The notes: generated from the sequence alone by a model not told the origin. Positions 1 to 15,941 are shown, counted from the stretch's first letter. The stretch: DNA of 64,000 nt from Bacteroidota bacterium (GCA_023416995.1 JAEZGI010000044.1:5964-69963); one strand, 5' to 3'. Made by a program: numbers and translations.

Positions 1-2142
1 GACATCATTGTTCACAATTTTGTTTTTTGTTTGATTGAGCGTAAGAAAAACAAAGAGGTTATTGTTTTTAAACGGGTTCACAGAAGCCAAATTCAATTGT
101 ACTGCGTGAGTGTACTCCTGTTTGAGATCAGGGTTTCCGGCCTTTATGTTCAAAGGGTCCGAAATATCGGGTACGGGTTGTAGTTGATCAATACGGGGCT
201 GATTGGTACTGGTGGCGTAAGAGATTGTCAGATTTTTTTGTCTTGTAAAATTATATTGCACACGGGCATTCGGCAACAGGTTCTGAAACCGCTGGTGTAG
301 TGTTGAGTCTTTTGTGCCGGCAATAATTTTTCCCTCAAGGTCAGCTTGTTGTGCATTCATGCCCACGGCGATGTTGAAGCCATTTTTGACTGCTCTTAAT
401 TTCAACCCGGCGTTTGTGTAACCATACTTATTTGCAAAATCATTTGTCAGAAATTTGTTCAACCGATCATATTTACCGGAGTTTTTATCGAGATCGTAAG
501 TTGTTTTGACGGCCTGGCTCACCGTCTGACTTTTGCCAATATTGAATTCAAGCAATGTTCCTTTCATAATTGGTTCTGTAAGTACACCACGGAGATTATA
601 GCTCCATAAATCACCCTGGTTGAAACTTACCTGGTTGATGGAGTCTTTTCGGATCGCCGTTCCTGTACGTCCATAAAATTCATTAACTGATTGGAGTGAA
701 GCGTTAGCTTCACTTTCATTATAGGAGGTCTGTAAATTGACAGATAAGGTTCTGCCCTTCAATCGAAATTTCTTCCGAAACAACAAATCGTTCCTGAAAT
801 TAAAACCCTCGCTTTCTGACTGGTTCCTGCTATAACCTTCGTTTGTGGGAATACCGTCTGCCGACATCGTGCTGTAGTCGCTGAAATTGTAATTATCCGA
901 CTGCTGCAAGCCAAAGGAGGGAGATATCTTAATCGAATGGAAAGAATCAATTTTTATATCAGCACCCAGGTTTAGTCTTACGCTATTGCTGGTATTTTGG
1001 CTGGTTGCATTTTGTTTATAAAAGTAAGACGAATCGGGTAGCAGGTATTCCCGCTCAATTTGGGTTTCACGATAAGGACTATACCGGTTATAAAACAGGT
1101 TGCTTGTAAAATCAGTATTGTTCCCTATGAGGTTGTTGTAATTAAGTCCACCTCCCCAAATTGTATTTATGCCGCTGCCATTACCATTCATACCCTGCAA
1201 ATTTGACGCCGCATCATCTAAGGTAATTAACATTGAGCCACCTCCTTGTCGCATACGGTTCAGTTCACCCGAGAAGTTGAGCATATCCATGAATGAAAAG
1301 CCTTCAGCATTTGTGTTGTTGCCCATACCAATGGCCGACAGTTGTCTTGCACCTTTAAACGAATTGATATTAAATCGTCCTTCATACGTGCCGGCCGATC
1401 CGCTACCTGCATTCACTTTGCCGAACAGTCCTTTTTTTTTATCTTTTTTCAGTTTCAGGTTTATAGTTTTTTCACTGTTGCCATCGTCAATCCCTGTTAA
1501 TTGTGCGGCATCACTTAATCTGTCATAAGCCTGTACTTTATCTACTGCGTCTGCGGGGAGGTTGCGGGTGGCGAGTTTGGGATCGTTGCCAAAAAACTCT
1601 TTTCCATCTACAAGTACCCGATTCACTTTTTGTCCCTGTGCCGTGATTGTACCTTCTTTGTCTACCTTGATGCCAGGCATATTCTTCAGGAGCTGTTCCA
1701 CATTCGCATTTGGCGGTGTTTTAAATGATCCTGCGTTGTATTGAACCGTATCTCCGATAAGGGTAACCGGCGGGGCCTCGGCGGTAACAGTCACTTCCTC
1801 AAGTATCCTGGCCCGGTCAAACATGTTAATCTTTTCGAGATCGATCTCTTTTGATTCAGGGCCGATTTCAAAGAAGCGGTTTTGGTTATGGTAATTAACA
1901 TGGGTCAGTAACAATCTATAATCACCTGCTGCCAATGCATTAATTAAGAAAACCCCTTTATTATCGGTCATGGTGAATGAAACCAGCGATGAATCATTTT
2001 TCCTCAGTACCGTTACTGTTGCGCCTTTTACTGGCTCGTTGGTTAAAGAGTCATAGAGCTGACCGCGAACGCTCCCGGTCTTTTGTGCATTGGAAGAAGA
2101 ACAAATCAATAATGACAATAGTATTAATATCAACGGTCTCAT
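1..2142 (-). CDS. Outer-membrane beta-barrel / TonB-dependent-receptor-like protein with N-terminal carboxypeptidase-regulatory-like domain. It is partial, because the C-terminus runs off the left window edge.
   Basis: Absent from the ORF track because no stop lies in the window. Manual minus-strand translation from the ATG at 2142-2140 gives MRPLILILLSLLICSSSNAQKTGSVRGQLYDSLTNEPVKGATVTVLRKNDSSLVSF... and stays open in frame to position 1. It shows a signal peptide, a CarboxypepD_reg-like beta-sandwich, then a long beta-strand-rich N/S/T/G/Y sequence. Confidence 0.7.
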   Translation of the reverse strand, partial: MRPLILILLSLLICSSSNAQKTGSVRGQLYDSLTNEPVKGATVTVLRKNDSSLVSFTMTDNKGVFLINALAAGDYRLLLTHVNYHNQNRFFEIGPESKEIDLEKINMFDRARILEEVTVTAEAPPVTLIGDTVQYNAGSFKTPPNANVEQLLKNMPGIKVDKEGTITAQGQKVNRVLVDGKEFFGNDPKLATRNLPADAVDKVQAYDRLSDAAQLTGIDDGNSEKTINLKLKKDKKKGLFGKVNAGSGSAGTYEGRFNINSFKGARQLSAIGMGNNTNAEGFSFMDMLNFSGELNRMRQGGGSMLITLDDAASNLQGMNGNGSGINTIWGGGLNYNNLIGNNTDFTSNLFYNRYSPYRETQIEREYLLPDSSYFYKQNATSQNTSNSVRLNLGADIKIDSFHSIKISPSFGLQQSDNYNFSDYSTMSADGIPTNEGYSRNQSESEGFNFRNDLLFRKKFRLKGRTLSVNLQTSYNESEANASLQSVNEFYGRTGTAIRKDSINQVSFNQGDLWSYNLRGVLTEPIMKGTLLEFNIGKSQTVSQAVKTTYDLDKNSGKYDRLNKFLTNDFANKYGYTNAGLKLRAVKNGFNIAVGMNAQQADLEGKIIAGTKDSTLHQRFQNLLPNARVQYNFTRQKNLTISYATSTNQPRIDQLQPVPDISDPLNIKAGNPDLKQEYTHAVQLNLASVNPFKNNNLFVFLTLNQTKNKIVNNDV

Positions 2143-2662
2143 AACAGAAATTTTCGGGTGTAAGGTGTACACGCGAAACTATTTCCGTAATGTTATAAGG
2201 CAGGTTAACCAGCCTTGCATTAATGTTAATGAAGGTTAATGTTCATGGTAAGTGTATCAAACAATCTTCAAAAAAAATCACCCCACTAATTTGGTAGACT
2301 ATTACCTTTGCTATACTTTCGTATTTCATTAAAGGTGTTTAACTATTTTAACCAAGCCAACTTAGCATGAAACATTTGCACCTCGATCTCAAATCCCGAC
2401 TGGCTCATAATGCTTCTCCAGGACCACCATCTTACCGATGTTGTCATTAATCAGATTTTTAGGTTCGTTGTAGTGACGAATCGTTCCAGCTATATATACA
2501 AAAGGGCCGGAAACTGTTAGCGCAGCTCCGACCCGGGACAAAAGGCTTACCAAGCGTGAATAGGCGTATTTACACTCAACCTCTTGTCTGACAAATATAT
2601 TGTTTCAGCTCTATATTGTCAGGCAACAGGTTGATTAATTCTATCAAAGTAATTAATCAATC

Positions 2663-5600
2663 ATGAAAATCATCGGACCTCCGCGGTTACTGAACCCTTC
2701 AATTCTCCTTTTTCTTTGTTTCCTCTTTTCAACAATCAAGATCTTTTCTCAAACTGGTACACCTATCACTGGTAAAACACTTGCAGGCAAGAGCCGTAGT
2801 CCATTACAGGGTGCCACAGTACAGATAGCAGGCAGTACCAACACTGTTGTAACGGGCAACCAGGGCGAGTTCCGCATCATTACTTACAAACCGCTACCTG
2901 TAACGCTGGTAATTACATACACAGGGTATTCACCTAAGGAAATCGAGATAACTGATGCCAACCCCGTAGAAGTTTTATTAGAAGAGGCGCCGGCCGAATT
3001 ATCTGATGTCGTTGTGGTGGGTTATGGTACCCAACGCAGAAGTGAACTATCAGGTTCCGTAGCAAAGATTGCCGGGCGGGATGTAACAAAAATACCCGTT
3101 GCCAGTTTCGATGCCCAGTTGCAGGGAAAAGCTTCGGGTCTGCAGATCATCTCCAATTCCGGTGTTCCCGGCGAGGGTGTTTTTGTACGGGTAAGAGGTA
3201 CAACTTCCATTAACTCGAGCAGTGATCCCCTGTATGTGATTGACGGGGTATTTCTAAACAATACAAGTCTTCAAAGCACAAATCTTGGTGGCCGCGTTAC
3301 TTCACCCATTGCAGACATTAATCCGGCCGACATTGAAAGTATTGAAGTGTTGAAAGACGCTTCTGCAACCGCTATTTATGGGTCAAGAGGTGCTAACGGA
3401 GTTGTGATTGTTACCACGAAAAAAGGAACATACGGATCGACGCCAAAAATCACCCTCGATGTTGCGAATGGTTGGGTGCAGGCAGACAAATCAACATTAC
3501 CAAAACTGGCAAGCGGTCCTGAAAGCGCTATGCTTGCCAATGAATACTGGATCAACTCTGGTATAGACCGGCCATCACTCAACCAGACTTTTGCCAACCG
3601 TCCTTTCCGCCCGGTTGCTGAAGGAGGAAACGGTTTACCGGAAGAGCAACCCACTGTTGACCGTATCGGTGACTTACTGCGCAAAGGTTATCTGCAGGAT
3701 TATAACCTCTCAATACAAGGTGGAACAAACACATCAAGATATTATTTTGGTGCAGGTTTTACCGACCAGGATGCGCTCATGAAAGTGATCAATTTTTCAA
3801 GGGCAAGTCTCAAATTTAATTTTGATCAGAAACTATCTGACCGGATAAGTTTCGGACTAACTAATAACCTTACCCGTAGTCAACGTAACCAGGCAAGAAC
3901 CGGCGATGGCCCCCAGGTAAGCTTATGGAATTCGGCTGTTTCTGCCGCGACCTATACTCCAAAATATGCGCAGGACGGCACTTCGGTGGGATCGGATAAT
4001 ACCTACATCTTAATGGAGAATTATGATGTGAAAACCATCAGTCTCCGGTATATCGGAAGTGTTTATGGGGAAGCGCAGATAGCAAAGGGACTAAAATTCA
4101 GAACAAGTTTCAGCCTGGATTACAATCATTACGATGAATGGCAATACTGGAACTCGAAAACCAGTATTGGTAAGGCTTCAAATGGTGAAGCAGTTTCTGC
4201 AATCACCCAAAATACTACCTGGATCAACGAACAGACATTATCGTATGCAACCGGGCTCAATGATCATAACATTAATCTGCTTGCCGGTAATACCGTACAA
4301 GGAAATACAATTGCCTCAACTTATGCAAATGGTAAGGGCTTTGCAAATGATAATTATAAACTGATATCTTCAGCCTCTACTCAAACTTCATCACAAGGCT
4401 GGAGCAAATACACCCTCACTTCTTTTTTTGGCCGTGCAGGATACAACTATCAGAAAAAATATTTTGTTGAGGCTACACTCAGAGCAGATGCCTCTTCAAA
4501 GTTTGGTGCTAATAACCGTTGGGGATATTTCCCGGCTTTCTCTGCGGCCTGGCGGGCATCAGAAGAGCATTTCCTGAAGGATGTTTCATGGTTATCTGAT
4601 CTTAAGATCCGCGCCTCTTATGGTATTACCGGCAACCAGGCAGGCATTGATGAGTTTGCATCAAAAGGTCTTTGGTCGGGCGGGAGCAGCTATGCAGATG
4701 TAGTAGGCACACCTTTGCCAGGCATAGGCCCTGCACAATTGGGCAATGATGATCTCAAGTGGGAAAAGACAGCCCAAACCAATATTGGTATTGATCTGGG
4801 TTTGCTGGATAACCGTATCAGCATCACCGCTGATTATTATAAGAAATACACTACAGATCTTCTTCTGCAACAACCGATCCCATCTTCTTCGGGTTTTTCA
4901 ACCTATTGGGCCAATGTTGGCGAGATCACCAACAAAGGTTACGAAGTAAACATCAACACCATCAACGTTGATCGTAAAGATTTCCGATGGACAACAAACC
5001 TCAATTTTTCGGGTAACCGTAACCGTATTGAAAAACTTCCCACTCAGCTTACCCGCTATACACGCGATTGGGTGATTATGAAGGAAGGATATTCGATGAA
5101 CTCTTTCTGGTTGTACAAACAGATTGGTGTCGATCCCGCAAATGGTAGGGTAATTTTTGAAGGACAGGATGAGAATGGCGCTGTGACTGCGGAAGACAGA
5201 CAGATCTACAAAAATTTCTATCCGCGTGTTTATGGAGGTCTTACTAACAATTTTACGTTTGGCAATATTGATCTTGGTATCACATTTTCTTTCCAGGAGG
5301 GCAATTATTCATTAAATCTTCAACGCTATTTCCGCGAGCGTAATCCTCTCAGTGGCGGCGTGTTCTCAAAAGTGCTTGATCGTTGGCAAAAACCCGGTGA
5401 CATAACAGATGTCCCAAGACTCACATCCGTCGGAAACAATTATACAATTGATCAAAACAGTCGCTACCTGGAAGATGCATCCTTTATTCGCCTAAAACAA
5501 TTGACGGTGGGTTACAAAATACCGCAGTCGATTGTGAGCCGGGTAAAACTTTCTGGAGCCAGGTTGTACTTCGTTGGCTCGAATCTTAAACTATGGACGA

Positions 5601-5719
5601 AATACGACGGGGATCCTGAGTCGAATGTTACCTCTGATCCAACAGCACAGGGCATCGGCTCATTTGGTACGCCGCCACAACCAATAGGTTTCCAGTTTGG
5701 CTTGAACGTTACTTTCTAA
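2663..5719 (+). CDS. SusC/RagA-family TonB-linked outer membrane transporter (no STN domain)
   Basis: 1018 aa. Signal peptide, CarboxypepD_reg-like segment (GATVQIAGSTNTVVTGNQGEFRI), plug motif DVVVVGYGTQRRSELSGSV and IESIEVLKDASATAIYGSRGANGVVIVTTKKG, long barrel, C-terminal GLNVTF. Confidence 0.93.
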   Translation: MKIIGPPRLLNPSILLFLCFLFSTIKIFSQTGTPITGKTLAGKSRSPLQGATVQIAGSTNTVVTGNQGEFRIITYKPLPVTLVITYTGYSPKEIEITDANPVEVLLEEAPAELSDVVVVGYGTQRRSELSGSVAKIAGRDVTKIPVASFDAQLQGKASGLQIISNSGVPGEGVFVRVRGTTSINSSSDPLYVIDGVFLNNTSLQSTNLGGRVTSPIADINPADIESIEVLKDASATAIYGSRGANGVVIVTTKKGTYGSTPKITLDVANGWVQADKSTLPKLASGPESAMLANEYWINSGIDRPSLNQTFANRPFRPVAEGGNGLPEEQPTVDRIGDLLRKGYLQDYNLSIQGGTNTSRYYFGAGFTDQDALMKVINFSRASLKFNFDQKLSDRISFGLTNNLTRSQRNQARTGDGPQVSLWNSAVSAATYTPKYAQDGTSVGSDNTYILMENYDVKTISLRYIGSVYGEAQIAKGLKFRTSFSLDYNHYDEWQYWNSKTSIGKASNGEAVSAITQNTTWINEQTLSYATGLNDHNINLLAGNTVQGNTIASTYANGKGFANDNYKLISSASTQTSSQGWSKYTLTSFFGRAGYNYQKKYFVEATLRADASSKFGANNRWGYFPAFSAAWRASEEHFLKDVSWLSDLKIRASYGITGNQAGIDEFASKGLWSGGSSYADVVGTPLPGIGPAQLGNDDLKWEKTAQTNIGIDLGLLDNRISITADYYKKYTTDLLLQQPIPSSSGFSTYWANVGEITNKGYEVNINTINVDRKDFRWTTNLNFSGNRNRIEKLPTQLTRYTRDWVIMKEGYSMNSFWLYKQIGVDPANGRVIFEGQDENGAVTAEDRQIYKNFYPRVYGGLTNNFTFGNIDLGITFSFQEGNYSLNLQRYFRERNPLSGGVFSKVLDRWQKPGDITDVPRLTSVGNNYTIDQNSRYLEDASFIRLKQLTVGYKIPQSIVSRVKLSGARLYFVGSNLKLWTKYDGDPESNVTSDPTAQGIGSFGTPPQPIGFQFGLNVTF

Positions 5720-5739
5720 AGGCTATTAATTCTAAAAAG

Positions 5740-7104
5740 ATGAAATCAATATATTCTGTATTTGCAATTTTTGCTTCGGTCATTTTTACTTCGTGTGAAA
5801 AATTTCTGGATGTTGAACCAAAAGAACTAACATCCGACCAGATAACCATCACTGACGAAAACTCGGCTAAGACTGCAGTGAGAGGGCTTTACAACCAGCT
5901 TGGATCTAACGGTTATTATGGTTATACATTCCAGACACTTGGATTTTTTTCCGGTGATAATATACAATATGTAGGTTCCCAAACAGTCAATCAGCAGCTA
6001 ACCAATCATGATGTGAAGTCTGATCTTGGTGCGGTATCTACAGCATGGACCGCCATTTATAATACTATCAACCGGGCCAATAATGTACTAAGTAAGGTGC
6101 CGGCTATTCCGTTGACCACTTCGTTCACGGAAGCAGTAAAAAATCAATTACTAGGTGAAGCGCATTTTGTACGTGCGCTTGCATATTTCGATCTTGCGCG
6201 AACCTGGGGCGGCGTTCAGCTTGTACTTGAGCCCACATCTTCAGCTGCCGGGCGTAACGATATCAAAAGAAGCACACTTGCAGAAACATACAGCCAGGTG
6301 CTTGCCGATCTTACAAAAGCAGAAGTTTTGTTGCCGGAAACTGTGAATCGCATCAGGGCGACCAAAAAAACAGTGTGGGCCTTAAGAGCGCGTTTTCATT
6401 TGTACCAGCAACAATGGGCAGAGGCAGAAACATATGCTACGAAGATAATTACTGATGTAACGAATTATCAGTTGCGTAGTCCCTGGTCATCTTTTTTTGC
6501 AAACAATGCCCAGGGAACACCCGAATCAGTACTGGAGTTGTATTATACAACAACCGTCACCAACAACCAGGCGAGTCAGTGGCAGCCAGCTACAAAAGGT
6601 GGAGTGGGCTGGATCAAGCCAACCAGTGCACTTGTGTCGTTGCTGACTGATCCGGAGGTTGGTGGTGACAGAAACGCCTTGATACAACGCGTTGTTATCA
6701 ACGGTGTGGAGAACTGGTTCGGAAACCTTTACTACCGCACTAACGGAACTGACCCCGCGTACCTGATCCGGGTTGCTGAACTGTATCTTATCAGGTCAGA
6801 GGCGAGGGCACAGTTAAATAATTTAAGTGGGGCGATCGAAGACGTAACAGCTATCAGGCAAAGGGCCGGTATTGATGAAGCTATTCCCGATAACATCAGG
6901 AAAAACGATTTGCTGTTGATTATAGAGAATGAGAACAGGCTTGAGTTTGCTCTGGAGAACCATCGTTGGTACGACCTTGTGCGCACCAATCGGGCCGCGA
7001 CTGTGTTAGGTATATCGGATCCCAACAAATTCTTACTTCCCATTCCGTTCAGCGAGACCATCGTCGATAAACAATTGGAACAAAATCCGGGATACGGTCA
7101 ATAA
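5740..7104 (+). CDS. SusD/RagB-family nutrient-binding outer membrane lipoprotein
   Basis: 454 aa, starting 20 nt after SusC. Lipoprotein signal (VIFTSCEKFLDVEP). SusD hallmarks: AHFVRALAYFDLARTWGGV, YLIRSEARAQ, NENRLEFALENHRWYDLVR and a C-terminal NPGY-type end. Confidence 0.92.
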   Translation: MKSIYSVFAIFASVIFTSCEKFLDVEPKELTSDQITITDENSAKTAVRGLYNQLGSNGYYGYTFQTLGFFSGDNIQYVGSQTVNQQLTNHDVKSDLGAVSTAWTAIYNTINRANNVLSKVPAIPLTTSFTEAVKNQLLGEAHFVRALAYFDLARTWGGVQLVLEPTSSAAGRNDIKRSTLAETYSQVLADLTKAEVLLPETVNRIRATKKTVWALRARFHLYQQQWAEAETYATKIITDVTNYQLRSPWSSFFANNAQGTPESVLELYYTTTVTNNQASQWQPATKGGVGWIKPTSALVSLLTDPEVGGDRNALIQRVVINGVENWFGNLYYRTNGTDPAYLIRVAELYLIRSEARAQLNNLSGAIEDVTAIRQRAGIDEAIPDNIRKNDLLLIIENENRLEFALENHRWYDLVRTNRAATVLGISDPNKFLLPIPFSETIVDKQLEQNPGYGQ

Positions 7105-7127
7105 TGAACCTCATATAATCTTTTTCA

Positions 7128-8465
7128 ATGAGCAGGATTTTCATTCACAAAGATGTCACATCGCCATGGACACGAACCGAATTGATCCTTTTTCGTTTTG
7201 GTTTTCTTTTTATCGCGCTGCTGACCATACCGTTTTACAAATCTTATTATAGTAATATTTTTTCTATCAACCCGCTTGATCTTTCTTTCCAGGATTTGTT
7301 CCAGGTTAGTCATCATGTACCTGGAATAGGATGGTTCGATAATTCAGCAAGTTCATTTAGCGGATGGCTTGCTGCAGCGACGATAGCACTGGCTGGAACC
7401 ATAATATGGACCATAGCCGACCGCGGCGCGGGCAACTACGACCGTTTGTATTACTGGACCCGGGCCGCCTTAAGATACCGGCTGGCCGGAGGTATCATAG
7501 CGTATGGTTTATTATTACTGTTCCCTGTGTTGATGCCTTCACCGGCTTTGAGTGATCTTCATACCGCTTACGGTGATTTTCTGCCCTGGAAGATTTATTA
7601 TCATTCAACAGCAGTGGCCTCAGCAGGCTACCGGCAAACAATAGGCTTTTTTGAAATATTAGGTGGTTTGTTTTTGTTGAGAAGACGTACAGTAGTGTTT
7701 GGTGCTATCATCATAATGTTTATCCTCGTGAACGTGGTTCTCGCAAACTTTGCTTATGATATTGGCGAACATCTTTACAGTACCTACCTGTTGCTGCTGT
7801 CGGCAGTTTTGCTGGCCCACGATCTGCCTCGTTTATATACTTTGATCGTATTAAGAACAAAAACAACGGCTGATCGCATCAGCCTTCAGTTCAGCAAAAA
7901 CGAAAGGATCTTCAAAAACATTGTTCGTGTTTCGTTTGGCCTGTTTACAGTAGTGTTTGTTGGGTTACTTGTGACAACCTATACCGGTAGCAACTGGCCC
8001 TATCCGGATAAACCTGGTCTTACAAATGCAGCAGGTTATTACAATGTACGTTTCTTTAAAATAAACGATACCATTCTTCCATATTCTGAAACAGATCCTG
8101 TGAGATGGCAGGATGTGGTATTTGAAAAATGGAACGTGTTAAGCGTGCGTACCAGTAAACCCTATCCACCGGTTACAGCGGCCCCCCAGATCATTGCAAC
8201 GGCCAATACGCACCTGGATTATGGATCCATTGGCAATGGCGGGAGAAATTTTTACCGGTACGAACTGTCGGGTGACCACCTCGATCTGTACAGTCAATAT
8301 GATAGCACAGATAAATTAAGGTTTGTGGTTCAAAGACCGGATGCTGCCACGATCATTTTAAACGGCCGAAGCATTGCAGGTGATAGTTTATCAATCACTT
8401 TGGACAAAATCAATAAAGAATACCTGCTGCATAAGGGAAGAAGAAAACCAATTTCAATTTATTAA
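7128..8465 (+). CDS. Polytopic (about 7 TM) membrane protein with a C-terminal ~160 aa soluble domain. DoxX/HTTM-clan-like by weak resemblance; function unknown (paralog 1).
   Basis: 445 aa, starting 23 nt after SusD. Hydrophobic helices include LILFRFGFLFIALLTIPF, GWLAAATIALAGTIIWTIA, YRLAGGIIAYGLLLLFPVLM and FFEILGGLFLLRRRTVVFGAIIIMFILVNVVLANF. Clearly paralogous to the next gene. Confidence 0.6.
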   Translation: MSRIFIHKDVTSPWTRTELILFRFGFLFIALLTIPFYKSYYSNIFSINPLDLSFQDLFQVSHHVPGIGWFDNSASSFSGWLAAATIALAGTIIWTIADRGAGNYDRLYYWTRAALRYRLAGGIIAYGLLLLFPVLMPSPALSDLHTAYGDFLPWKIYYHSTAVASAGYRQTIGFFEILGGLFLLRRRTVVFGAIIIMFILVNVVLANFAYDIGEHLYSTYLLLLSAVLLAHDLPRLYTLIVLRTKTTADRISLQFSKNERIFKNIVRVSFGLFTVVFVGLLVTTYTGSNWPYPDKPGLTNAAGYYNVRFFKINDTILPYSETDPVRWQDVVFEKWNVLSVRTSKPYPPVTAAPQIIATANTHLDYGSIGNGGRNFYRYELSGDHLDLYSQYDSTDKLRFVVQRPDAATIILNGRSIAGDSLSITLDKINKEYLLHKGRRKPISIY

Positions 8466-8475
8466 TCATATAGCT

Positions 8476-9918
8476 ATGTTACTTACTGCCCCTGGTGTTA
8501 AACGCGAAAAGAAGTTGGTATTAAAACCGGGTTCCGAGGTATGGACATCATCCGAAAAATTTTGGTTCAGAGTTTTGTTCCTTTTTGTGATACTGCTGGT
8601 GATACCGTATGAAACCAATTTTTATGTCCGGCTTTTTAACAGCCGTTCATTTTTCTGGTACCTTTCTTCGCTCGCGGGTTATCGCCCTAATTTTTATACA
8701 CTACAGACCGAAAGCGGCCGCTGGGGCCTTGGTTCATACCTCAACTGGGCGATAGCTGGAGGAATCGCTTTGACCGGCGCCATCATCTGGACGCTCGTCG
8801 CCCGTAAAACCGAACGTCACCGCACAAACTATAATGTGTTGTATTACTGGACGCGTGTAGTTATGCGCTATAGAATTGCTGTTGGTCTGATTGCGTTTGG
8901 TTTTTTAAAGGTATACCCGATGCAGATGCCTTATCCATCTTTATCAAACCTGCTGACTGATCTTGGTGACTACAATACTTATAAAATTTATTGGCAGCAT
9001 GTCGGTATCGCCATCTGGTATGAGATACTATTAGGATGGGTTGAAGTGATCGGCGGGATATTGATGTTTTTCCGTGCCACCACATTTATCGGCGCACTTA
9101 TCAACGCAGGTGTTTTGTACAATATAGCACACGCAAACCTGGGATATGATGGCGGGGTACATGTGTATAGTTCGTTTTTTGTGTTGTTTTCGCTGATACT
9201 GTTGATACCTTATGTAATAGATTTGTACCGTTTGTTTGTTGAGCAAAGGGATGTGATGCCAAGACGTTATGTGCCGGCATTTAATTCCGCGGGCAAACGG
9301 CTGTTTTATTATGCAACCAAGGCGACTGTCATTATCTTATTCACCCTCGTTTATGGCTTACTGAGACATGATGTTCACTACAATGAAAAGTATTTAAAAG
9401 AACCGGTGAATCCAGGATTATCGAATGCTGCCGGTATCTATAACGTGAGTGAGTTTAAACTGAATGGAACCGTGTTGCCTTATAATCCACTTGATTCAAT
9501 TCGTTGGCAGAATGTTGTTTTTGAAAACTGGGGAACGATGATATACAAAGTCAATAAAGCTTTCCCGGTTTCACTGAATAACGGCACACCTAATTTGCAA
9601 AACCTGCAAAGAAGTTATGAATTGGCTGGCATAGCCGGAGGACGCAGATTTTTGTATTATGAAGCTGATACAGTCAGTCAGGTTCTTTACCTGAAAGACA
9701 AGGCGCAAAAAAGGGGTGGGGATGAAGAAAGTGCGCGTGGAACCGTTCCTGCAAAAAAACAAAAGCCTGAAGAGCCATTGTTTTCGTGGCGTTATGAGCG
9801 GGCAGGGAGCGACCGTATTATTATCCGTGGCCGTCTTGAAAATAAAGATTCGATAGATGTAGTGTTGGATCGTGTGCAACGAAAATTTGCCATCCAGACT
9901 AATCGTATCCGGTACTAA
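8476..9918 (+). CDS. Polytopic membrane protein, diverged tandem paralog of 7128-8465, with the same C-terminal soluble domain plus a charged tail
   Basis: The track ORF 8374-9918 overlaps the preceding gene, so the in-frame ATG at 8476 (MLLTAPGVKREKK), 10 nt after the upstream stop, is preferred. Shares YYWTR..RYR, PGL(T/S)NAAG.YNV and RWQ(D/N)VVFE.W motifs with paralog 1. Confidence 0.6.
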   Translation: MLLTAPGVKREKKLVLKPGSEVWTSSEKFWFRVLFLFVILLVIPYETNFYVRLFNSRSFFWYLSSLAGYRPNFYTLQTESGRWGLGSYLNWAIAGGIALTGAIIWTLVARKTERHRTNYNVLYYWTRVVMRYRIAVGLIAFGFLKVYPMQMPYPSLSNLLTDLGDYNTYKIYWQHVGIAIWYEILLGWVEVIGGILMFFRATTFIGALINAGVLYNIAHANLGYDGGVHVYSSFFVLFSLILLIPYVIDLYRLFVEQRDVMPRRYVPAFNSAGKRLFYYATKATVIILFTLVYGLLRHDVHYNEKYLKEPVNPGLSNAAGIYNVSEFKLNGTVLPYNPLDSIRWQNVVFENWGTMIYKVNKAFPVSLNNGTPNLQNLQRSYELAGIAGGRRFLYYEADTVSQVLYLKDKAQKRGGDEESARGTVPAKKQKPEEPLFSWRYERAGSDRIIIRGRLENKDSIDVVLDRVQRKFAIQTNRIRY

Positions 9919-9939
9919 TTTTATAGATATCATTGCATC

Positions 9940-10707
9940 ATGAAAAGAATTCTGTTAGTCGTTATCAGCATCGCTTTTTTCGGAGTTCAACTTCGCGCTA
10001 CGCCAACAACAGTTACCGTTCGTGCACGTGCGAAAGATGCAAAATTTATTGGCACCGGTATGGGTGGGGCTTATGTTGTTATCAGGAACGTCCTGACGGG
10101 TGAGGTGGTCGCAAAAGGTATTACGAGTGGTAATTCAGGTGATACCCGGTTGCTGTTGCAGTTGCCTGTCAAAAGGCACCAGGCGCTCACTGATCAGGAA
10201 ACAGCTAAATTTGTGACAACTATTGACCTTGCTGAGCCGTTATATGTAGAGATTGAAGTTTCAGCCCCCGTCACCAGGAAAAATGCAACAGTTAAGGGTT
10301 CGGTGCAGATGTGGCTGATACCCGGAAAACATATCGGTGGTGATGGAGTGATTGTTGAGTTGCCAGGTTTAATAGTGGATCTGTTACAGCCTACAACTCA
10401 CCAGGTAATTCCGGTTGGTTCAGGACAGAATATCCAACTGGTGTTCAGGACAAGTGTTACAATGTTGTGCGGGTGTACCATTACCAAAGGAGGCACCTGG
10501 GACGCGGATGGCATTGAGGTGGGGGCTATTATAAAAAAGGATGGAAAAGAAATTGAGAAGATCAGTATGAGGTTAACAGATACCGCGAATATATTTGAAG
10601 GCGTTTTAAAATCTGCGTCAAAAGGTTTGTACCAGATTACGGTTTATGCGTTTCAACCTATTACAGGAAACACCGGTGTGGATCATACTAATTTTGTGAT
10701 ACAATGA
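9940..10707 (+). CDS. Secreted hypothetical protein, probably beta-sandwich (transthyretin/CarboxypepD_reg-like N-terminal part)
   Basis: 255 aa, starting 21 nt after the preceding gene. Sec signal peptide MKRILLVVISIAFFGVQLRA. The segment GGAYVVIRNVLTGEVVAKGITSGNSGDT resembles regulatory-like beta-sandwich domains. I recognise no catalytic motif. Confidence 0.5.
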   Translation: MKRILLVVISIAFFGVQLRATPTTVTVRARAKDAKFIGTGMGGAYVVIRNVLTGEVVAKGITSGNSGDTRLLLQLPVKRHQALTDQETAKFVTTIDLAEPLYVEIEVSAPVTRKNATVKGSVQMWLIPGKHIGGDGVIVELPGLIVDLLQPTTHQVIPVGSGQNIQLVFRTSVTMLCGCTITKGGTWDADGIEVGAIIKKDGKEIEKISMRLTDTANIFEGVLKSASKGLYQITVYAFQPITGNTGVDHTNFVIQ

Positions 10708-10808
10708 CGAACGGGATCCGAAGGAATCAATTACAGACAAGGAACCGGATTAAAACAAAGGTTTAAACACAATAGGAAATAATTTAACAGCAACTTAAAA
10801 ATTTGATC

Positions 10809-11192
10809 ATGAAAAAAATATTGTATTTCGTTGTATCGCTTTTCATATCGGGAGCCGCATTTACACAGGATAAAAAAGCAGTTTCAGCGGCTGAGTTTGA
10901 AAAAGCCATTGATGACGATAAGGGAACTCTTATCGACGTCAGGAGACCTGAAGAGTTTAAAGAAGGTCATATCAAGGGTGCCCTAAACGCTAACTGGCAG
11001 AATATCGAAGAGTTTAAATCTAAAACCGCAAAACTCGACAAAACCAAACCAGTATATCTTTATTGCCTGGCCGGTGTGAGGAGTGAGAAGGCTGCAGACT
11101 ATTTACTGAAAAGCGGATTTAAACAGGTTATAGGTTTAGACGGTGGCATTAAGGCATGGAAAGATGCGAAGAAGCCCTTAGTGAAACCATAA
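10809..11192 (+). CDS. Exported single-domain rhodanese (sulfurtransferase-like)
   Basis: MKKILYFVVSLFISGAAFTQ signal peptide. Rhodanese motifs LIDVRRPEEFKEGHIKGALN and the active-site loop YLYCLAGVRSEKAA (Cys in CxxGxRS). The ATG at 10809 is preferred over the TTG at 10803. Confidence 0.85.
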   Translation: MKKILYFVVSLFISGAAFTQDKKAVSAAEFEKAIDDDKGTLIDVRRPEEFKEGHIKGALNANWQNIEEFKSKTAKLDKTKPVYLYCLAGVRSEKAADYLLKSGFKQVIGLDGGIKAWKDAKKPLVKP

Positions 11193-11235
11193 TGTATAAT
11201 AAATACTGTCGGCCGATTTACCAACGAGAATCATT

Positions 11236-11859
11236 GTGAACATTTTTATTTCTTACGCTTTTAGTTTTTTGGGTTCGCTAACACCAGGTACGGTTAATCT
11301 GAGTGTGCTACAGTCCGGGCTCGATCACAAAGCATCGGTAGCTATACGCATGGCTGCGGCTGCGGCAATGGTTGAATACTTTTATGCATGGATCGCAGTC
11401 AGGTTCGAAATGCTTATCACCAGCAGTCCTTTGATTGTTTCCAATATGCAACTAATAACCGCTATTGTAATGACTACGCTGGGTATACTGACTATTGTGA
11501 ACTCATCGGGACCGGGTAAGCTGAAAGAGTCGTCGCAACCCAATGGTTTTGTTAAGGGATTGCTTTTAGGTATACTTAATCCACTTGCAATTCCATACTG
11601 GACGGGAGCGACTGCGTATTTCAAAAGCCAGGGCTGGATAGATCTTACAACTTCTTTTGGTTTGCATTCGTATTTGTTGGGTGTATCACTTGGGGTGTTT
11701 ACTTTGCTTGTGCTTGTTGCTTATGGTGCCAGGCGCCTGGCCAGGGTGATGCTGAACAGCAAATCGATTGTAAGAAAGATACCGGGATTTCTCCTGTTAG
11801 GACTGGGTTTATTTGCGTTTACAAAATATTTCATTGGAGTATACTCAGTGAGTGCCTGA
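11236..11859 (+). CDS. LysE/RhtB-family amino-acid or metabolite exporter
   Basis: 207 aa with about 6 TM helices. N-terminal FLGSLTPGTVNL and LLGILNPLAIPYW are typical of LysE-type translocators. GTG start. Confidence 0.7.
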   Translation: MNIFISYAFSFLGSLTPGTVNLSVLQSGLDHKASVAIRMAAAAAMVEYFYAWIAVRFEMLITSSPLIVSNMQLITAIVMTTLGILTIVNSSGPGKLKESSQPNGFVKGLLLGILNPLAIPYWTGATAYFKSQGWIDLTTSFGLHSYLLGVSLGVFTLLVLVAYGARRLARVMLNSKSIVRKIPGFLLLGLGLFAFTKYFIGVYSVSA

Positions 11860-11938
11860 TCGGGTGGTTCGCACGGGTGTTGCTCACTATAAGCCCCATA
11901 AAAAATCACCGTAGGCTTCAGGCAGTTGATCTGCCGGG

Positions 11939-13390
11939 ATGGAAATTATACAAATGTCTCAATCAACATATGACGCAGTAGTTGTCGGGTCCGGTCCAAA
12001 CGGGCTGGCTGCAGCAATACATTTACAACAGGCGGGCCTGTCGGTGTTGATCCTTGAGGCCAAAGACACACCGGGTGGTGGTATGCGAACCGCGGCGCTC
12101 ACTTTGCCGGGTTTCAGTCACGATATCTGTTCAGCCGTTCATCCCATGGCGGCCAACTCGCCTTTTTTCAGGTCGCTACCGCTGGAAGAACATGGGTTGG
12201 AATATATATATCCCGAAATCGCAGCAGCGCATCCCTTTGATGATGGTACTGCTGCGATACTGACTAAATCTATTACTGATACCGGTGCAAGCCTGGGGGA
12301 AGATGAAAAGAGTTATCAGCAATTGATGAGGTCTTTGGTGAACGATTGGCCCGAAATTGAAAATGATGTACTTGCTCCATTTCGTTTTCCGGCAAGTCCC
12401 CTTAAAATGGCCGCATTTGGAGCAAGGGCCATACAGCCTGCAATATTGCTTGCCAAACGTTTCCGTAATGATAAGTCCAGGGCGTTTTTTGCCGGTATGG
12501 CGGCACATTCAATTCTTCCGTTAAATCAACTGGCCACCTCTGCTATTGGATTAGTAATGTTAATCTCTGCCCATATAAAAGGCTGGCCTGTACCCAGAGG
12601 CGGTTCGCAAACGTTGGCAGACGCTCTTGTCCGTTATTTTAAAAGTATTGGTGGCGAGATACAAACAGGCGTTCATGTAAAATCGCTTTTGGAGCTGCCA
12701 CCGGCAAAGGCAGTATTGTTTGACTGTGGCCCAAAGCAGCTATTGGAAATCGCCGGTAAACAGTTCAGTGCATTGTACAGGGGCCAGTTGCGGCGATACA
12801 AATACGGGATGGGCGTATTCAAAGTGGACTGGGCGCTGAATGCTCCGATACCTTTTACAAATGAACAGTGTCGAAGTGCGGGAACCTTGCATCTCGGGGG
12901 TTCTTTTAAAGAATTGGTAGCATCGGAGCAAAGTGCATGGTCAGGAAAAGAATCTGAAAACCCGTTCGTGTTGCTTGCACAGCAGAGTGTGGTTGATACA
13001 TCAAGAGCACCGCAGGGGAAACATACTGCCTGGGCTTATTGCCATGTGCCAAATGGATCGTTGAAAGACATGACAGCCATCATCGAACGGCAGGTTGAAA
13101 GATTTGCACCGGGCTTTGGTGATACCATCATTGCCCGTCATACTTATAATACCGCGCAAATGGAAGCTTACAATCCAAACTATATTGGCGGCGACATCAA
13201 CGGTGGTGAGTTCAATATAGCACAGTTATTCACAAGACCTGCTTTGCGGCGTTCGCCCTATAAAACCCCGGCGAAAGGATTGTATATCTGTTCGGCTTCG
13301 ACCCCTCCGGGTGGAGGGGTTCATGGTATGTGTGGTTTTCATGCGGCCCGGCAGGTATTGAAAGACCTGAACGTCGCAAATTTCGGTTAA
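11939..13390 (+). CDS. NAD(P)/FAD-dependent oxidoreductase of the phytoene-desaturase (CrtI-like) family
   Basis: 483 aa. Dinucleotide fold YDAVVVGSGPNGLAAAIHLQQAGLSVLILEAKDTPGGGMRT. C-terminal GLYICSASTPPGGGVHGMCG is typical of this family. An alternative start is the ATG at 11954. Confidence 0.8.
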   Translation: MEIIQMSQSTYDAVVVGSGPNGLAAAIHLQQAGLSVLILEAKDTPGGGMRTAALTLPGFSHDICSAVHPMAANSPFFRSLPLEEHGLEYIYPEIAAAHPFDDGTAAILTKSITDTGASLGEDEKSYQQLMRSLVNDWPEIENDVLAPFRFPASPLKMAAFGARAIQPAILLAKRFRNDKSRAFFAGMAAHSILPLNQLATSAIGLVMLISAHIKGWPVPRGGSQTLADALVRYFKSIGGEIQTGVHVKSLLELPPAKAVLFDCGPKQLLEIAGKQFSALYRGQLRRYKYGMGVFKVDWALNAPIPFTNEQCRSAGTLHLGGSFKELVASEQSAWSGKESENPFVLLAQQSVVDTSRAPQGKHTAWAYCHVPNGSLKDMTAIIERQVERFAPGFGDTIIARHTYNTAQMEAYNPNYIGGDINGGEFNIAQLFTRPALRRSPYKTPAKGLYICSASTPPGGGVHGMCGFHAARQVLKDLNVANFG

Positions 13391-13439
13391 ACCAAGCCGT
13401 TATACCGATAACACACCGGTTAATCACTGGCAAAATCAA

Positions 13440-15062
13440 CTATTGAAACCCCGGTATTTGATAACCAACTGTACCATCTACCATCGTTAGAAATACCTTT
13501 GTTGCCATCAATTGTGGTGGTGGTATTGTAAAAATATCCTGCGACAATACAACCAGGTCAGCGAGTTTACCTTTTTCCAGAGTGCCTTTTTGTTTTTCTG
13601 CAAATTCAGCATATGCTGCGGTGCTGGTATATGCTATCACAGCTTCTTCGCATGAAAGATTTTCAACCGGCCGTATCATAGCCAGCATGATATTCAGGAA
13701 CGGGTTCAATGGTCCATCCGAGCCTATAGCTGTTGGAATCCCTGCCGCAACCAACGACTTAACAAGATTGAATTTTTTATCAGCATAGTCTTTTAAGAAA
13801 TGGATGCTGGTGTCCTGTGAAGGATGAACGGGATTCACTACTACCACAATACCTTTTGCAACGAGTTCTCTCAGGAGCTTTTTTGATATGCCGTCTCCAT
13901 GTTCTATTCTTACGCGCATATTTTTTGCAACAGATAACGGTAATCCGTTCATCGCCTGCAATAGCACATTTATCATTGAATCTCCTGAAATATGAAACAT
14001 CGGCTGATCGGACCGTGTTGCTGCGTCCGTAAGCATTTGTTTCAGTTCAGAAGTTGTGTGATAAGCAATTCCGCTCCAGCCAGGCGGTTCGTTATAACCC
14101 GCGGAATAATATGCATGTTTTTCGAGCGGGGTACCTTCTATCATCCACTTGGTTCCGCTGATGGTCATTAATGGCAGACCAGGCGGAGATTTCGGTTTTT
14201 TAACCGGTGGGATCAATAACTTCCCGTTTCTGTCCATATCTGCCCAGGCTATTGCTCTGAACCTGATCGGCAAACCAACTTTTTGCCACATCTCAGCATA
14301 GGTGTCCGGTGAAGCAAAAGTGCACATGTTTTGCAGTGACGTAACGCCATATTGCAAAGCCTCTTCTGCCAGTGTTTTGAGGGACCGTGCAAATGCCTCC
14401 TTATCTGTCAGTGTTTCGAGAACGGGTGAAAGATACTGTGTGTTGTCGTATATTCTACCGTCCAGCTCGTTGTTGGTTGTTACCCTGCCATAAAAGCCCG
14501 CTTTTATTTCTGGTGGATCATTCAGCAATTGCAGCGTCTTCAAAGCTGCACTGTTAAACACGCCGACATGACCCCAATACGACCACAAATGAATTGGATG
14601 ATCCGGCGCAAGTTCATCAAGGCTGAAGCGATTCAATGAAGTATCCATTATTGTTTCTGGCCCCAGGGAAGCGTGGATCCATGTGCCTTTTGGCAGGGTG
14701 CGGGCTACCCGGATGATGGAATCTTCCAAAACCGAACGCGCCGGGGATCCGGTGCCATCGGGGGAGAAGCTGATATATCTGCCGATATACAGCGGCACGT
14801 GATGCATATGCGCATCATTAAACCCCGGTACTACCGTTTTACCTTCAAGGTTAATGCGTTTTGTTGCGGGACCTGCGAGTGTTAGTATTTCTTTATTTGT
14901 ACCTGTCGCAGCAATGATATTTTTGGAAACCGCAAGCGCTTCAACATAAAGTTTTTTCTTATCCGATGTGAAAATTTTTCCATTGTAAAACACAAAGTCC
15001 GCCGGTTGTGCCTGGCAGTTATGACCTAAAATGAGGAGACAAAAAATTGAAAACAGTTTCAT
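13440..15062 (-). CDS. Exported metal-dependent amidohydrolase (Amidohydro_3-like)
   Basis: Signal peptide MKLFSIFCLLILGHNCQA (ATG at 15062 preferred over the upstream TTG at 15095). Metal motif VPGFNDAHMHH, plus later HGD and GSDGP motifs. Confidence 0.8.
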   Translation of the reverse strand: MKLFSIFCLLILGHNCQAQPADFVFYNGKIFTSDKKKLYVEALAVSKNIIAATGTNKEILTLAGPATKRINLEGKTVVPGFNDAHMHHVPLYIGRYISFSPDGTGSPARSVLEDSIIRVARTLPKGTWIHASLGPETIMDTSLNRFSLDELAPDHPIHLWSYWGHVGVFNSAALKTLQLLNDPPEIKAGFYGRVTTNNELDGRIYDNTQYLSPVLETLTDKEAFARSLKTLAEEALQYGVTSLQNMCTFASPDTYAEMWQKVGLPIRFRAIAWADMDRNGKLLIPPVKKPKSPPGLPLMTISGTKWMIEGTPLEKHAYYSAGYNEPPGWSGIAYHTTSELKQMLTDAATRSDQPMFHISGDSMINVLLQAMNGLPLSVAKNMRVRIEHGDGISKKLLRELVAKGIVVVVNPVHPSQDTSIHFLKDYADKKFNLVKSLVAAGIPTAIGSDGPLNPFLNIMLAMIRPVENLSCEEAVIAYTSTAAYAEFAEKQKGTLEKGKLADLVVLSQDIFTIPPPQLMATKVFLTMVDGTVGYQIPGFQ

Positions 15063-15280
15063 GTCAGAAAAATTTATAGTGGGGCTATAGCGCAATAAGA
15101 ATCCGGAAATATCAGCTTACGGTGGCACACAAGAAAATTACGGAAGTAAATTCATAAATAGAAAATCATAAAAAGCCGATTTGATTTCTCAACCGGGCCA
15201 TGCAGCATTTTCAATTTTTTCTTCTTAGTATTGCTGTTTGTTACACAACAAAACCGCTTCATTCCTAACAACTGCTGCCA

Positions 15281-15871
15281 TTGACCCAACGCGACCCAAA
15301 TATCGAAAAGGAGCTGCTGTTACAGGTTTCCCAGGGTGGGGACCAGGCGTTTTCCCGTTTGTTTCATCAATATCATCACCAGCTTGCAGCATATATTAAT
15401 CATCTTACAGGATCTGCCGACACCACGGAAGAGGTTGTACAGGATGTGTTTATGAAAATATGGGTCAACAGAATTGCACTTGCCGAAGTCACTGATTTCC
15501 GCGCCTGGCTGTTTGCTATTTCAAAAAATCATGCAATCAATTGCCTTAAAAAGATGGCGACCGAACGTTTGCAACAAAAGGAATGGTCCCGGTTGCAGGC
15601 GATAACAGGCGAAGGGGATAGCACGGGCAATGAATACCAGCATTTACTTATAGAAAAGGCGATTCAGCAGTTACCACCGCAACAAAAAAAGGTTTTTGTG
15701 CTGAGTAAAATCAACAGGCTCAAGTACGAAGAAATTGCAACCAGGCTGAATCTTTCAAGAGAAACTGTGAAATCATATATCGCTTTGGCAAAAACATCCA
15801 TCAATAAGTTTGTCAGCAGCAACTCCCCGTTTTTCATCACCTTGTACGTCATTACAAAAATTATTTTTTAA
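15281..15871 (+). CDS. ECF-type RNA polymerase sigma-70 family factor
   Basis: 196 aa. Region 2 (EEVVQDVFMKIWVNR..FRAWLFAISKNHAINCLKK) and region 4 HTH (QQKKVFVLSKINRLKYEEIATRLNLSRETVKSYI). TTG start, and no in-frame ATG nearby. Confidence 0.85.
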   Translation: MTQRDPNIEKELLLQVSQGGDQAFSRLFHQYHHQLAAYINHLTGSADTTEEVVQDVFMKIWVNRIALAEVTDFRAWLFAISKNHAINCLKKMATERLQQKEWSRLQAITGEGDSTGNEYQHLLIEKAIQQLPPQQKKVFVLSKINRLKYEEIATRLNLSRETVKSYIALAKTSINKFVSSNSPFFITLYVITKIIF

Positions 15872-15941
15872 TTTTTTTCCAATTCATTACCCCCTTTTTG
15901 CAGGTGACTGTGTCTTATAGCTGTAACGACGCTTTGACCGC

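Follow-up and report, generated by a model that had tools for sequence, protein, structure and literature searches.

The window analysed here is a stretch of 64,000 nucleotides from a Bacteroidota bacterium (GCA_023416995.1 JAEZGI010000044.1:5964-69963). It carries a same-strand string of eight genes, at 2663-13390, that opens with a SusC/SusD pair. Such pairs are regarded as the signature of glycan use in Bacteroidota, and genome surveys routinely score them as polysaccharide utilisation loci (PULs). We propose, with a probability of about 0.55, that this unit is not a PUL and serves to take up and oxidise a sulfur compound that is reduced and poorly soluble. A sequence-only reading of the same DNA had described its first five genes as an import gate wired to an uncharacterised membrane module, with a cargo that may not be a glycan. 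A locus conserved in soil Bacteroidota and free of carbohydrate-active enzymes (CAZymes) bears out that much, and we conclude that the cargo is probably non-glycan; the link to sulfur was unforeseen. Each functional statement made below draws on gene neighbourhood and predicted structure and is worded accordingly.

The genes of the unit, and one element upstream of them, are the following:

2663-5719, plus strand: SusC, with TIGR04056, CarboxypepD_reg, Plug and barrel domains
5740-7104, plus strand: SusD, with PF14322 and PF07980
7128-8465, plus strand: Mem1, a protein with seven transmembrane (TM) helices in its AlphaFold2 (AF2) model, without family match
8476-9918, plus strand: Mem2, a 480-aa paralogue of Mem1 (33% identity)
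9940-10707, plus strand: Sec, a 255-aa secreted tandem beta-sandwich protein (signal peptide, AF2 model)
10809-11192, plus strand: single-domain rhodanese (sulfurtransferase), with PF00581 and a signal peptide
11236-11859, plus strand: LysE/RhtB-type small-molecule exporter of the inner membrane, with PF01810
11939-13390, plus strand: FADox, a CrtI-like FAD oxidoreductase, with Amino_oxidase and NAD_binding_8
2576-2634, plus strand: hairpin with 19-nt arms (inverted repeat and RNA fold)

A SusC/SusD locus without the enzymes or regulator of a PUL

The five genes from SusC to Sec run head-to-tail with gaps of 20, 23, 10 and 21 nt. The sequence-only reading had given this arrangement, which was reproduced when open reading frames (ORFs) and gaps were recomputed, and the public gene calls of a contig encoding identical proteins match all five ORFs. 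The frame of Mem2 is open back to a TTG at 8374, which would overlap the end of Mem1 by 92 nt; the alignment with Mem1 and the public call favour the ATG at 8476 as its start. The extent first given to the unit has to be revised. The string continues past Sec with the rhodanese, the LysE exporter and FADox as far as 13390, and FADox is part of the conserved core described below while Sec is an accessory. On the left, the unit is bordered by a divergent outer-membrane barrel gene that ends at 2142, and on the right by a convergent amidohydrolase gene that starts at 13440.

SusC (1018 aa), a TonB-dependent outer-membrane transporter of the SusC/RagA type, matches TIGR04056 at 810 bits (cut-off 368), and a profile scan found no STN signalling domain in it. 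SusD (454 aa), an outer-membrane lipoprotein, matches PF14322 and PF07980; its only conserved cysteine is Cys19 of the lipobox. An adjacent SusC/SusD pair is the one feature that the locus has in common with a canonical PUL. As the sequence-only reading had remarked, neither glycoside hydrolase nor regulator accompanies the pair: profile scans detected no CAZyme domain in the eight genes or the genes flanking them, and between 2142 and 13440 there is no regulator, be it of the hybrid two-component (HTCS), SusR or ECF/anti-sigma plus STN kind. Lacking both features, the locus is not a canonical polysaccharide utilisation locus. A gene pair for an ECF sigma factor and a FecR-type anti-sigma factor lies beyond the convergent gene, at 15281-17165, and probably heads a separate TonB-receptor locus.

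The core of the unit is conserved across orders and phyla

A motif scan of 185,579 species-representative genomes returned 413 confirmed stretches, with paralogues counted separately. We fetched 80 of these loci and tabulated their ORFs by BLAST against the reference proteins. Homologues of Mem1 detected number 463. The two Mem genes are adjacent in 78 loci; nearly all loci have a second Mem paralogue and some have three to five. In 68 of the 80 loci, the Mem pair is immediately preceded by SusC and SusD, with median gaps of 17-24 nt, an arrangement that is far from chance, and FADox is found downstream of the pair in 54. The conserved core of the system is SusC-SusD-Mem1-Mem2 together with FADox. 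Conservation of the five-gene order had been named in advance as a check on the proposed unit. The module is conserved across orders and phyla: besides Chitinophagaceae, Sphingobacteriaceae and Cytophagales, its carriers include a single Flavobacterium and three Acidobacteria. Both acidobacterial loci that were readable (L030 and L056) keep Mem1-Mem2-FADox, with no SusC/SusD in the stretch fetched; a TonB receptor of acidobacterial type is encoded nearby in L056. No CAZyme recurs across the 80 loci.

Cognate SusC orthologues have a median identity of 49% to the SusC of the window, against 36% for other SusC proteins encoded in the same loci; for SusD, the corresponding values are 52% and 30%. 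Across loci, the cognate pair is also more conserved than Mem1 (40%) and Mem2 (36%). Since cognate SusC and SusD exceed non-cognate pairs across orders, the pattern indicates a transporter dedicated to one conserved ligand.

Two genomes carry the system twice. Pontibacter qinzhouensis has two complete SusC-SusD-Mem1-Mem2 systems in tandem (NZ_VRTY01000018.1, 6117-49263; L066 and L047), and Pedobacter panaciterrae O48 has two copies on different contigs (L037 and L038). SusD-Mem1-Mem2 also occurs on a contig binned as 'Acinetobacter pittii' (L051, JBQGCI010000322.1), which is most likely a mis-binned Bacteroidota contig.

Sulfur-oxidation genes recur downstream of the core

Within 10 kb downstream and on the same strand, a sulfur enzyme is encoded in 36 of the 80 loci, and an enzyme or a YeiH-family gene in 56. 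Three arrangements recur among these neighbours. In type A (17 of the 80 loci), Sec is joined by a protein of about 480 aa with a metallo-beta-lactamase (MBL) and a rhodanese domain, at the position of the window's rhodanese. Because its best PDB matches are 3tp9, 3r2u, BpPRF and ETHE1, we read this protein as a CstB-like persulfide dioxygenase-sulfurtransferase (PDO-rhodanese). The depositors' names for 3tp9 and 3r2u are 'beta-lactamase and rhodanese domain protein' and 'metallo-beta-lactamase family protein'; 3r2u is presumably a CstB-type protein. A twin-arginine (TAT) signal of the form MKRRxFI... begins 16 of 18 PDO-rhodanese fusions (L006-L041; for example L008 13712-15184 and L011 13620-15083), which accordingly appear to be exported to the periplasm. 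To our knowledge, the persulfide dioxygenases described so far (ETHE1, CstB, BpPRF) are cytoplasmic or mitochondrial.

Type B, found in about 20 loci, consists of a cytochrome c and a molybdoenzyme that matches TIGR04555 (sulfite_DH_soxC) at 459 bits (cut-off 420) and has a TAT signal in all copies. In type C (26 loci), a gene for a YeiH-family putative sulfate exporter directly follows FADox. Types A and B never occur in one locus, as expected of alternative modules with the same job. Other variants include a cassette of an MFS transporter, a cysteine-dioxygenase-like cupin (CDO_I) and a triple rhodanese (Solitalea, strain A37T11 and one acidobacterium), TlpA/ResA-like lipoproteins, DsbD_N proteins and a gene of the Na/sulfate-symporter family. 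The gene order in one acidobacterial locus is TonB receptor, triple rhodanese, CDO and TetR, then MFS, Mem1, Mem2, FADox and a TlpA-like/DsbD_N protein. In one Flavobacteriaceae locus, Sec adjoins DsbD and a cysteine desulfurase. A 501-aa protein beside Sec in a Flavobacteriaceae locus was considered as a distant Mem homologue and rejected (hhalign probability 0.2). CstB-like dioxygenases, CDO-like cupins and SoxC-like enzymes, three unrelated types, recur beside the core, as do rhodaneses, periplasmic thiol-disulfide reductases and genes resembling sulfate exporters. Delivery of reduced sulfur by the core is the simplest way to read this pattern.

The window is a variant of type A, in which a stand-alone periplasmic rhodanese and the LysE exporter take the place of the dioxygenase fusion. 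The rhodanese matches PF00581 at 81.8 bits, has the active-site loop CLAGVR and is 127 aa long in the public call. Its N-terminus, MKKILYFVVSLFISGAAFTQ, is a signal peptide, and we therefore place the protein in the periplasm. The exporter matches PF01810 at 52.4 bits. The same rhodanese-LysE pair follows Mem2 in Flavihumibacter sp. UBA7668 (L072). Measured against the module of sulfide:quinone oxidoreductase (SQR), persulfide dioxygenase and rhodanese, the window has the rhodanese and neither of the other two. Weak matches to rhodanese/selenoprotein models had raised a selenium reading, which was dropped because no other selenium gene is present.

Mem1 and Mem2 are paired membrane proteins with lipocalin-like domains predicted to be periplasmic

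Mem1 and Mem2 align as paralogues with an E value of 1e-70 and share one architecture, and they are likely partners in a hetero-oligomer. The AF2 model of Mem1, built with 45 homologues (pLDDT 87, pTM 0.85), has seven TM helices followed by a C-terminal soluble domain of about 158 aa, in keeping with the two polytopic proteins with soluble domains of about 160 aa that the sequence-only reading had described. In the model, residues 303-428 (approximately 300-430) form an eight-stranded antiparallel barrel, with a short helix at 433-436. Foldseek matches this barrel to the lipocalin-like structures 5byp and 4qrl (both Bacteroides proteins) and 4wfv, and to bovine and dog lipocalins, with best target-normalised TM scores of 0.46-0.62. 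By barrel and helix, the modelled domains are lipocalin-like. The density of Lys and Arg is 0.28, 0.48 and 0.21 in loops 2, 4 and 6, against 0.07, 0.04 and 0.01 in loops 1, 3 and 5. Under the positive-inside rule, this distribution places the N-terminus inside, and the barrels are predicted to face the periplasm (N-in, C-out).

The same proteins had been called DoxX/HTTM-like, a description that profile searches do not support. Among 45 members of the Mem family, one touches DoxX (E 0.07) and one MauE (E 0.034). Neither Mem1, Mem2 nor Sec matches a Pfam or NCBIfam family at E <= 0.01, and at Pfam E <= 10 only noise appears for the three (MauE E 3.6 for the window's Mem proteins, Big_3 E 0.019). 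Scanning the 45 aligned Mem and 40 aligned Sec homologues still gave no family assignment, and profile searches of PDB sequences with the Mem and Sec families gave zero matches up to E = 10. In Foldseek, the membrane part faintly resembles vitamin-K gamma-carboxylase (9l20 and 9l21; E 0.07, probability 0.35-0.41, TM score 0.24-0.26). Among Mem1 homologues (P0066, P0071, P0090, P0098 and P0117 were noted), the NCBI and UniRef label is 'beta-carotene 15,15'-monooxygenase' in several cases, in others 'DoxX family protein'. Pfam and NCBIfam scans support neither, and the former is probably a propagated misannotation.

Conserved cysteines are absent from both paralogues and conserved histidines are scarce. 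The polar residues conserved in common are D150, K155, Y168, E176, R186, T188, N207 and Y210, and in the barrels D323, R326, W327, E333 and E366. The lack of conserved Cys and His favours a role for Mem1/Mem2 in binding or translocation, or one that depends on quinones.

FADox is a predicted cytoplasmic flavoprotein with conserved cysteines

FADox (478-483 aa) combines Amino_oxidase and NAD_binding_8 matches with a match to the CrtO model in four stretches (E 2e-43, 148.7 bits, cut-off 1000). Against TIGR02734 it scores 70.4 bits (cut-off 238.1), so that the cut-offs of the CrtI and CrtO families are both missed. No signal peptide was found in the protein, which is predicted to be a cytoplasmic, CrtI-like FAD oxidoreductase. 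Its matches in the PDB, led by the CrtI structure 4dgk, cover little beyond the FAD motif. No SQR entry appeared in the PDB search, and Pyr_redox_2 matches over the first ~40 residues only, at 23 bits (cut-off 26). FADox is about 63% identical across the related loci, and its top matches in public databases reach 65-67% across genera. The family counts more than 8000 matches, all under generic names ('phytoene desaturase family / NAD(P)/FAD-dependent oxidoreductase'). Four cysteines are near-invariant (Cys64, Cys368, Cys451 and Cys465), and this conservation favours thiol or sulfane chemistry at the cytoplasmic face.

Sec is an accessory protein with an invariant CxC motif

Sec occurs in 16 of the 80 loci, 14 of which also encode a rhodanese-domain protein, and is an accessory member of the system. 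It has 255 detectable homologues, and the family comprises 711 representatives. The AF2 model (pLDDT 90.5) consists of two Ig-like beta-sandwiches behind a Sec-type signal peptide; no lipobox was found. The exported beta-sandwich protein of the sequence-only reading is thereby recovered, with one amendment: that reading saw no catalytic motif, and the alignment, unusually well conserved with a mean column identity of 55%, reveals a candidate functional motif, C177-G-C179, which is invariant along with H154; a KDAKF...GGA motif is seen as well. The CxC motif suggests a carrier or redox function, the least secure of the roles that we assign to the parts. Foldseek neighbours of Sec are generic tandem-Ig structures only (TM score <= 0.32); CopC and the dimerisation domain of sulfite oxidase resemble it at fold level only and were not used. 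The Sec domain also occurs in fusions with a PF00144 serine beta-lactamase-like hydrolase, which come from two lineages that are unrelated (P0423, 680 aa; P0462, 709 aa), C-terminal in one case and N-terminal in the other, with the CxC kept as CSC.

A model for uptake and oxidation of a poorly soluble sulfur compound

In the pathway that we infer, down to the identity of its cargo, the SusC/SusD pair would capture a sulfur compound at the cell surface for TonB-dependent import and feed it to Mem1/Mem2. The periplasmic barrels of the Mem heteromer would bind the hydrophobic cargo, and the 7-TM domains would insert it into the inner membrane or move it across. The cysteine-rich FADox would then act on the cargo at the cytoplasmic face. 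Sulfur at the sulfane or sulfite level would be released in the periplasm to one of several interchangeable modules. In the window, this module would comprise Sec, possibly as a carrier of persulfide or polysulfide, the periplasmic rhodanese and the LysE-type exporter; in relatives, it would be the TAT-exported CstB-like PDO-rhodanese, the SoxC-type sulfite dehydrogenase with cytochrome c, or the YeiH-family exporter. That the system needs a TonB-dependent SusC/SusD pair, and that its periplasmic domains resemble lipocalins, leads us to expect a hydrophobic, poorly soluble cargo rather than thiosulfate or sulfide. Our leading guess, a tentative one at well under even odds, is zero-valent sulfur in the form of S8, polysulfanes or organic polysulfides; the cargo may alternatively be a lipophilic thiol, thioether or disulfide.

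Several points weigh against this proposal. The sulfur link is one of gene neighbourhood only, and the rhodanese is the window's only recognisable sulfur enzyme. Twelve of the 80 loci have neither FADox, Sec nor a sulfur gene downstream, several of them being truncated contigs. The YeiH 'sulfate exporter' is a putative annotation only. The family of FADox normally acts on isoprenoids or amines and is unrelated to SQR beyond the FAD-binding fold. Judged by their lack of conserved Cys and His, Mem1 and Mem2 themselves cannot perform thiol or haem chemistry. The PF00144 fusions suggest that the Sec domain is also used outside the sulfur pathway. Finally, nothing indicates elemental sulfur specifically.

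Alternative explanations

The alternative that survives best, which we hold to be unlikely, is homeostasis or detoxification of thiols and sulfane sulfur in the envelope. Mem1/Mem2 and FADox would form a membrane oxidoreductase linking periplasmic sulfur to the quinone pool, comparable to the mycobacterial DoxX-SseA-SodA complex or the DoxDA thiosulfate:quinone oxidoreductase. SusC/SusD would only let in a cystine-rich peptide or some small sulfur species, without import of any hydrophobic compound. In favour of this view, the paired membrane subunits are encoded beside rhodaneses and thiol-disulfide oxidoreductases, several databases label the Mem family DoxX, and CrtI-type flavoproteins are able to use quinones. 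The PDO, rhodanese and SoxC-like enzymes, as periplasmic proteins, likewise place the chemistry in the periplasm. However, Mem1 and Mem2 fall outside DoxX, DoxD, DoxA and MauE by profile and have no conserved Cys or His, and their lipocalin-like barrels imply a hydrophobic ligand. Thiosulfate and sulfide pass through porins, and a SusC/SusD pair conserved to some 50% identity points instead to a nutrient that is large or insoluble.

A second alternative, improbable in our judgement, does without sulfur: SusC/SusD would import an isoprenoid, quinone or carotenoid-like lipid, the barrels and HTTM-like domains would relay it, FADox would desaturate or reduce it, and the sulfur genes would lie nearby on other grounds. 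It draws on the homology of FADox over its length to CrtO/CrtI enzymes (CrtO match and 4dgk, above), on the resemblance of the Mem barrels to lipocalins and retinol-binding proteins and of the membrane part, faintly, to vitamin-K gamma-carboxylase, and on the beta-carotene monooxygenase label that some databases attach to Mem1 homologues. Yet that label is without profile support, and FADox stays far below the CrtI/CrtO cut-offs. Moreover, three unrelated kinds of sulfur-oxidising enzyme, along with rhodaneses, reductases and exporter-like genes, in 56 of 80 loci would be left unexplained, and the same sulfur association is seen in Acidobacteria.

An ordinary glycan PUL with enzymes and regulator elsewhere, its three unfamiliar proteins being glycan-binding or accessory, is very improbable: the SusC/SusD pair is typical of the family, Sec is an Ig-like tandem as are many surface glycan-binding proteins, and a few Chitinophaga loci have a type IX secretion system (T9SS) F5/8-type-C protein and a PL14-like gene further downstream, but no CAZyme is present in the unit or consistent in the 80 loci, Mem1 and Mem2 are 7-TM proteins rather than lipoproteins, Sec is without lipobox, Mem1-Mem2-FADox stands without SusC/SusD in the acidobacterial stretches, and the neighbours that recur are sulfur enzymes.

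Comparison with known import and sulfur-oxidation systems

We compared the proposed sulfur uptake and oxidation pathway with systems that share parts of it. TonB-dependent importers of Bacteroidota with cargo other than polysaccharides include RagAB (peptide, Porphyromonas gingivalis), BtuB-BtuG (vitamin B12) and XusABC (xenosiderophore), both of Bacteroides. RagAB alone among them is a SusC/SusD-type pair, the BtuG and Xus systems using other surface lipoproteins. They have in common with the window's locus a TonB-dependent transporter for a non-polysaccharide cargo and the absence of CAZymes; XusC is in addition an inner-membrane partner encoded beside its transporter. Unlike them, the locus has paired 7-TM proteins with lipocalin-like barrels and a CrtI-like flavoprotein, and its neighbours are sulfur-oxidation genes rather than peptidase, B12 or siderophore genes.

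The SQR, persulfide dioxygenase and rhodanese modules, such as the cst operon of Staphylococcus aureus, are matched by the MBL-rhodanese proteins of relatives, by stand-alone rhodaneses and by a flavoprotein beside the dioxygenase. The differences are a twin-arginine signal on the dioxygenase, the CrtI-like type of the flavoprotein, the attached importer and, in the window, the missing dioxygenase. No CstR-, BigR- or SqrR-type regulator was seen. DoxDA, DoxX and HTTM proteins offer a parallel in having a membrane part of two subunits or domains, with a soluble domain exposed at the outer side, and in the sulfur-oxidation context; a resemblance to vitamin-K gamma-carboxylase is possible but faint. 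In contrast, the window's proteins lack a significant match to DoxX, DoxD, DoxA, MauE or HTTM, combine seven TM helices with a lipocalin-like barrel and have no assignable catalytic residues.

With the Sox system, the relatives share the TIGR04555 molybdoenzyme and cytochrome c. Like SoxY, Sec is periplasmic and has an Ig-like fold, and its cysteine motif is invariant and flanked by glycine. It is, however, not homologous to SoxY or SoxZ, and its CGC lies inside the second domain, not in a C-terminal GGCGG. Sec and the SoxC-like enzyme are never found in the same locus, and no SoxAX or SoxB genes were seen. Full-text literature searches found no description of this locus.

Upstream region

The hairpin at 2576-2634 is an inverted repeat with 89% complementarity, 29 nt upstream of the SusC start codon, and is very stable (fold energy -27.3 kcal/mol, z -7.25). 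Of 69 related loci, 54% have a strong hairpin (<= -20 kcal/mol over 70 nt) in the 200 nt that precede SusC, compared with 11% of shuffled sequences; in the comparison of 68 related loci, the sequence of the hairpin, or palindrome, is not conserved upstream of SusC. The hairpin lies in the promoter or the 5' leader and may act in regulation; its membership in the uptake system is uncertain. An Rfam scan of 1-16000 at E <= 1 returned no riboswitch or other RNA family, and scans for sigma-70 promoters and terminators, models that are unsuited to Bacteroidota, stayed at shuffle level. The minus strand at 1-2142 encodes an OMP_b-brl_3 outer-membrane protein with a CarboxypepD_reg domain, which runs off the left end of the window.

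Implications

Genome surveys would miscount this type of locus as a PUL, at a scale set by the matching stretches found in our scan. The locus couples a highly conserved SusC/SusD pair to two protein families that are without a Pfam or NCBIfam model and to a very abundant, unnamed flavoprotein family, all of them among sulfur-oxidation genes. As far as we know, the uptake step for poorly soluble reduced sulfur in heterotrophic soil bacteria is not understood. Should the sulfur reading be true, the locus would provide a genetic handle on the uptake and oxidation of poorly soluble sulfur and on the role of the flavoprotein family, and it would add periplasmic, TAT-exported CstB-like persulfide dioxygenases to sulfur enzymology. 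Should the cargo be elemental sulfur, the inner-membrane module would constitute a new class of system. In its most far-reaching form, which we offer as speculative and doubtful, the system would be the first dedicated envelope-spanning route to insoluble zero-valent sulfur in aerobic heterotrophic soil bacteria. Bacteroidota would import the sulfur by SusC/SusD and Acidobacteria by other TonB receptors, the new Mem and FADox families would process it, and its oxidation to sulfite, thiosulfate and sulfate would fall to a periplasmic, TAT-exported PDO or SoxC-like enzyme working with a CxC-bearing Ig-like carrier.

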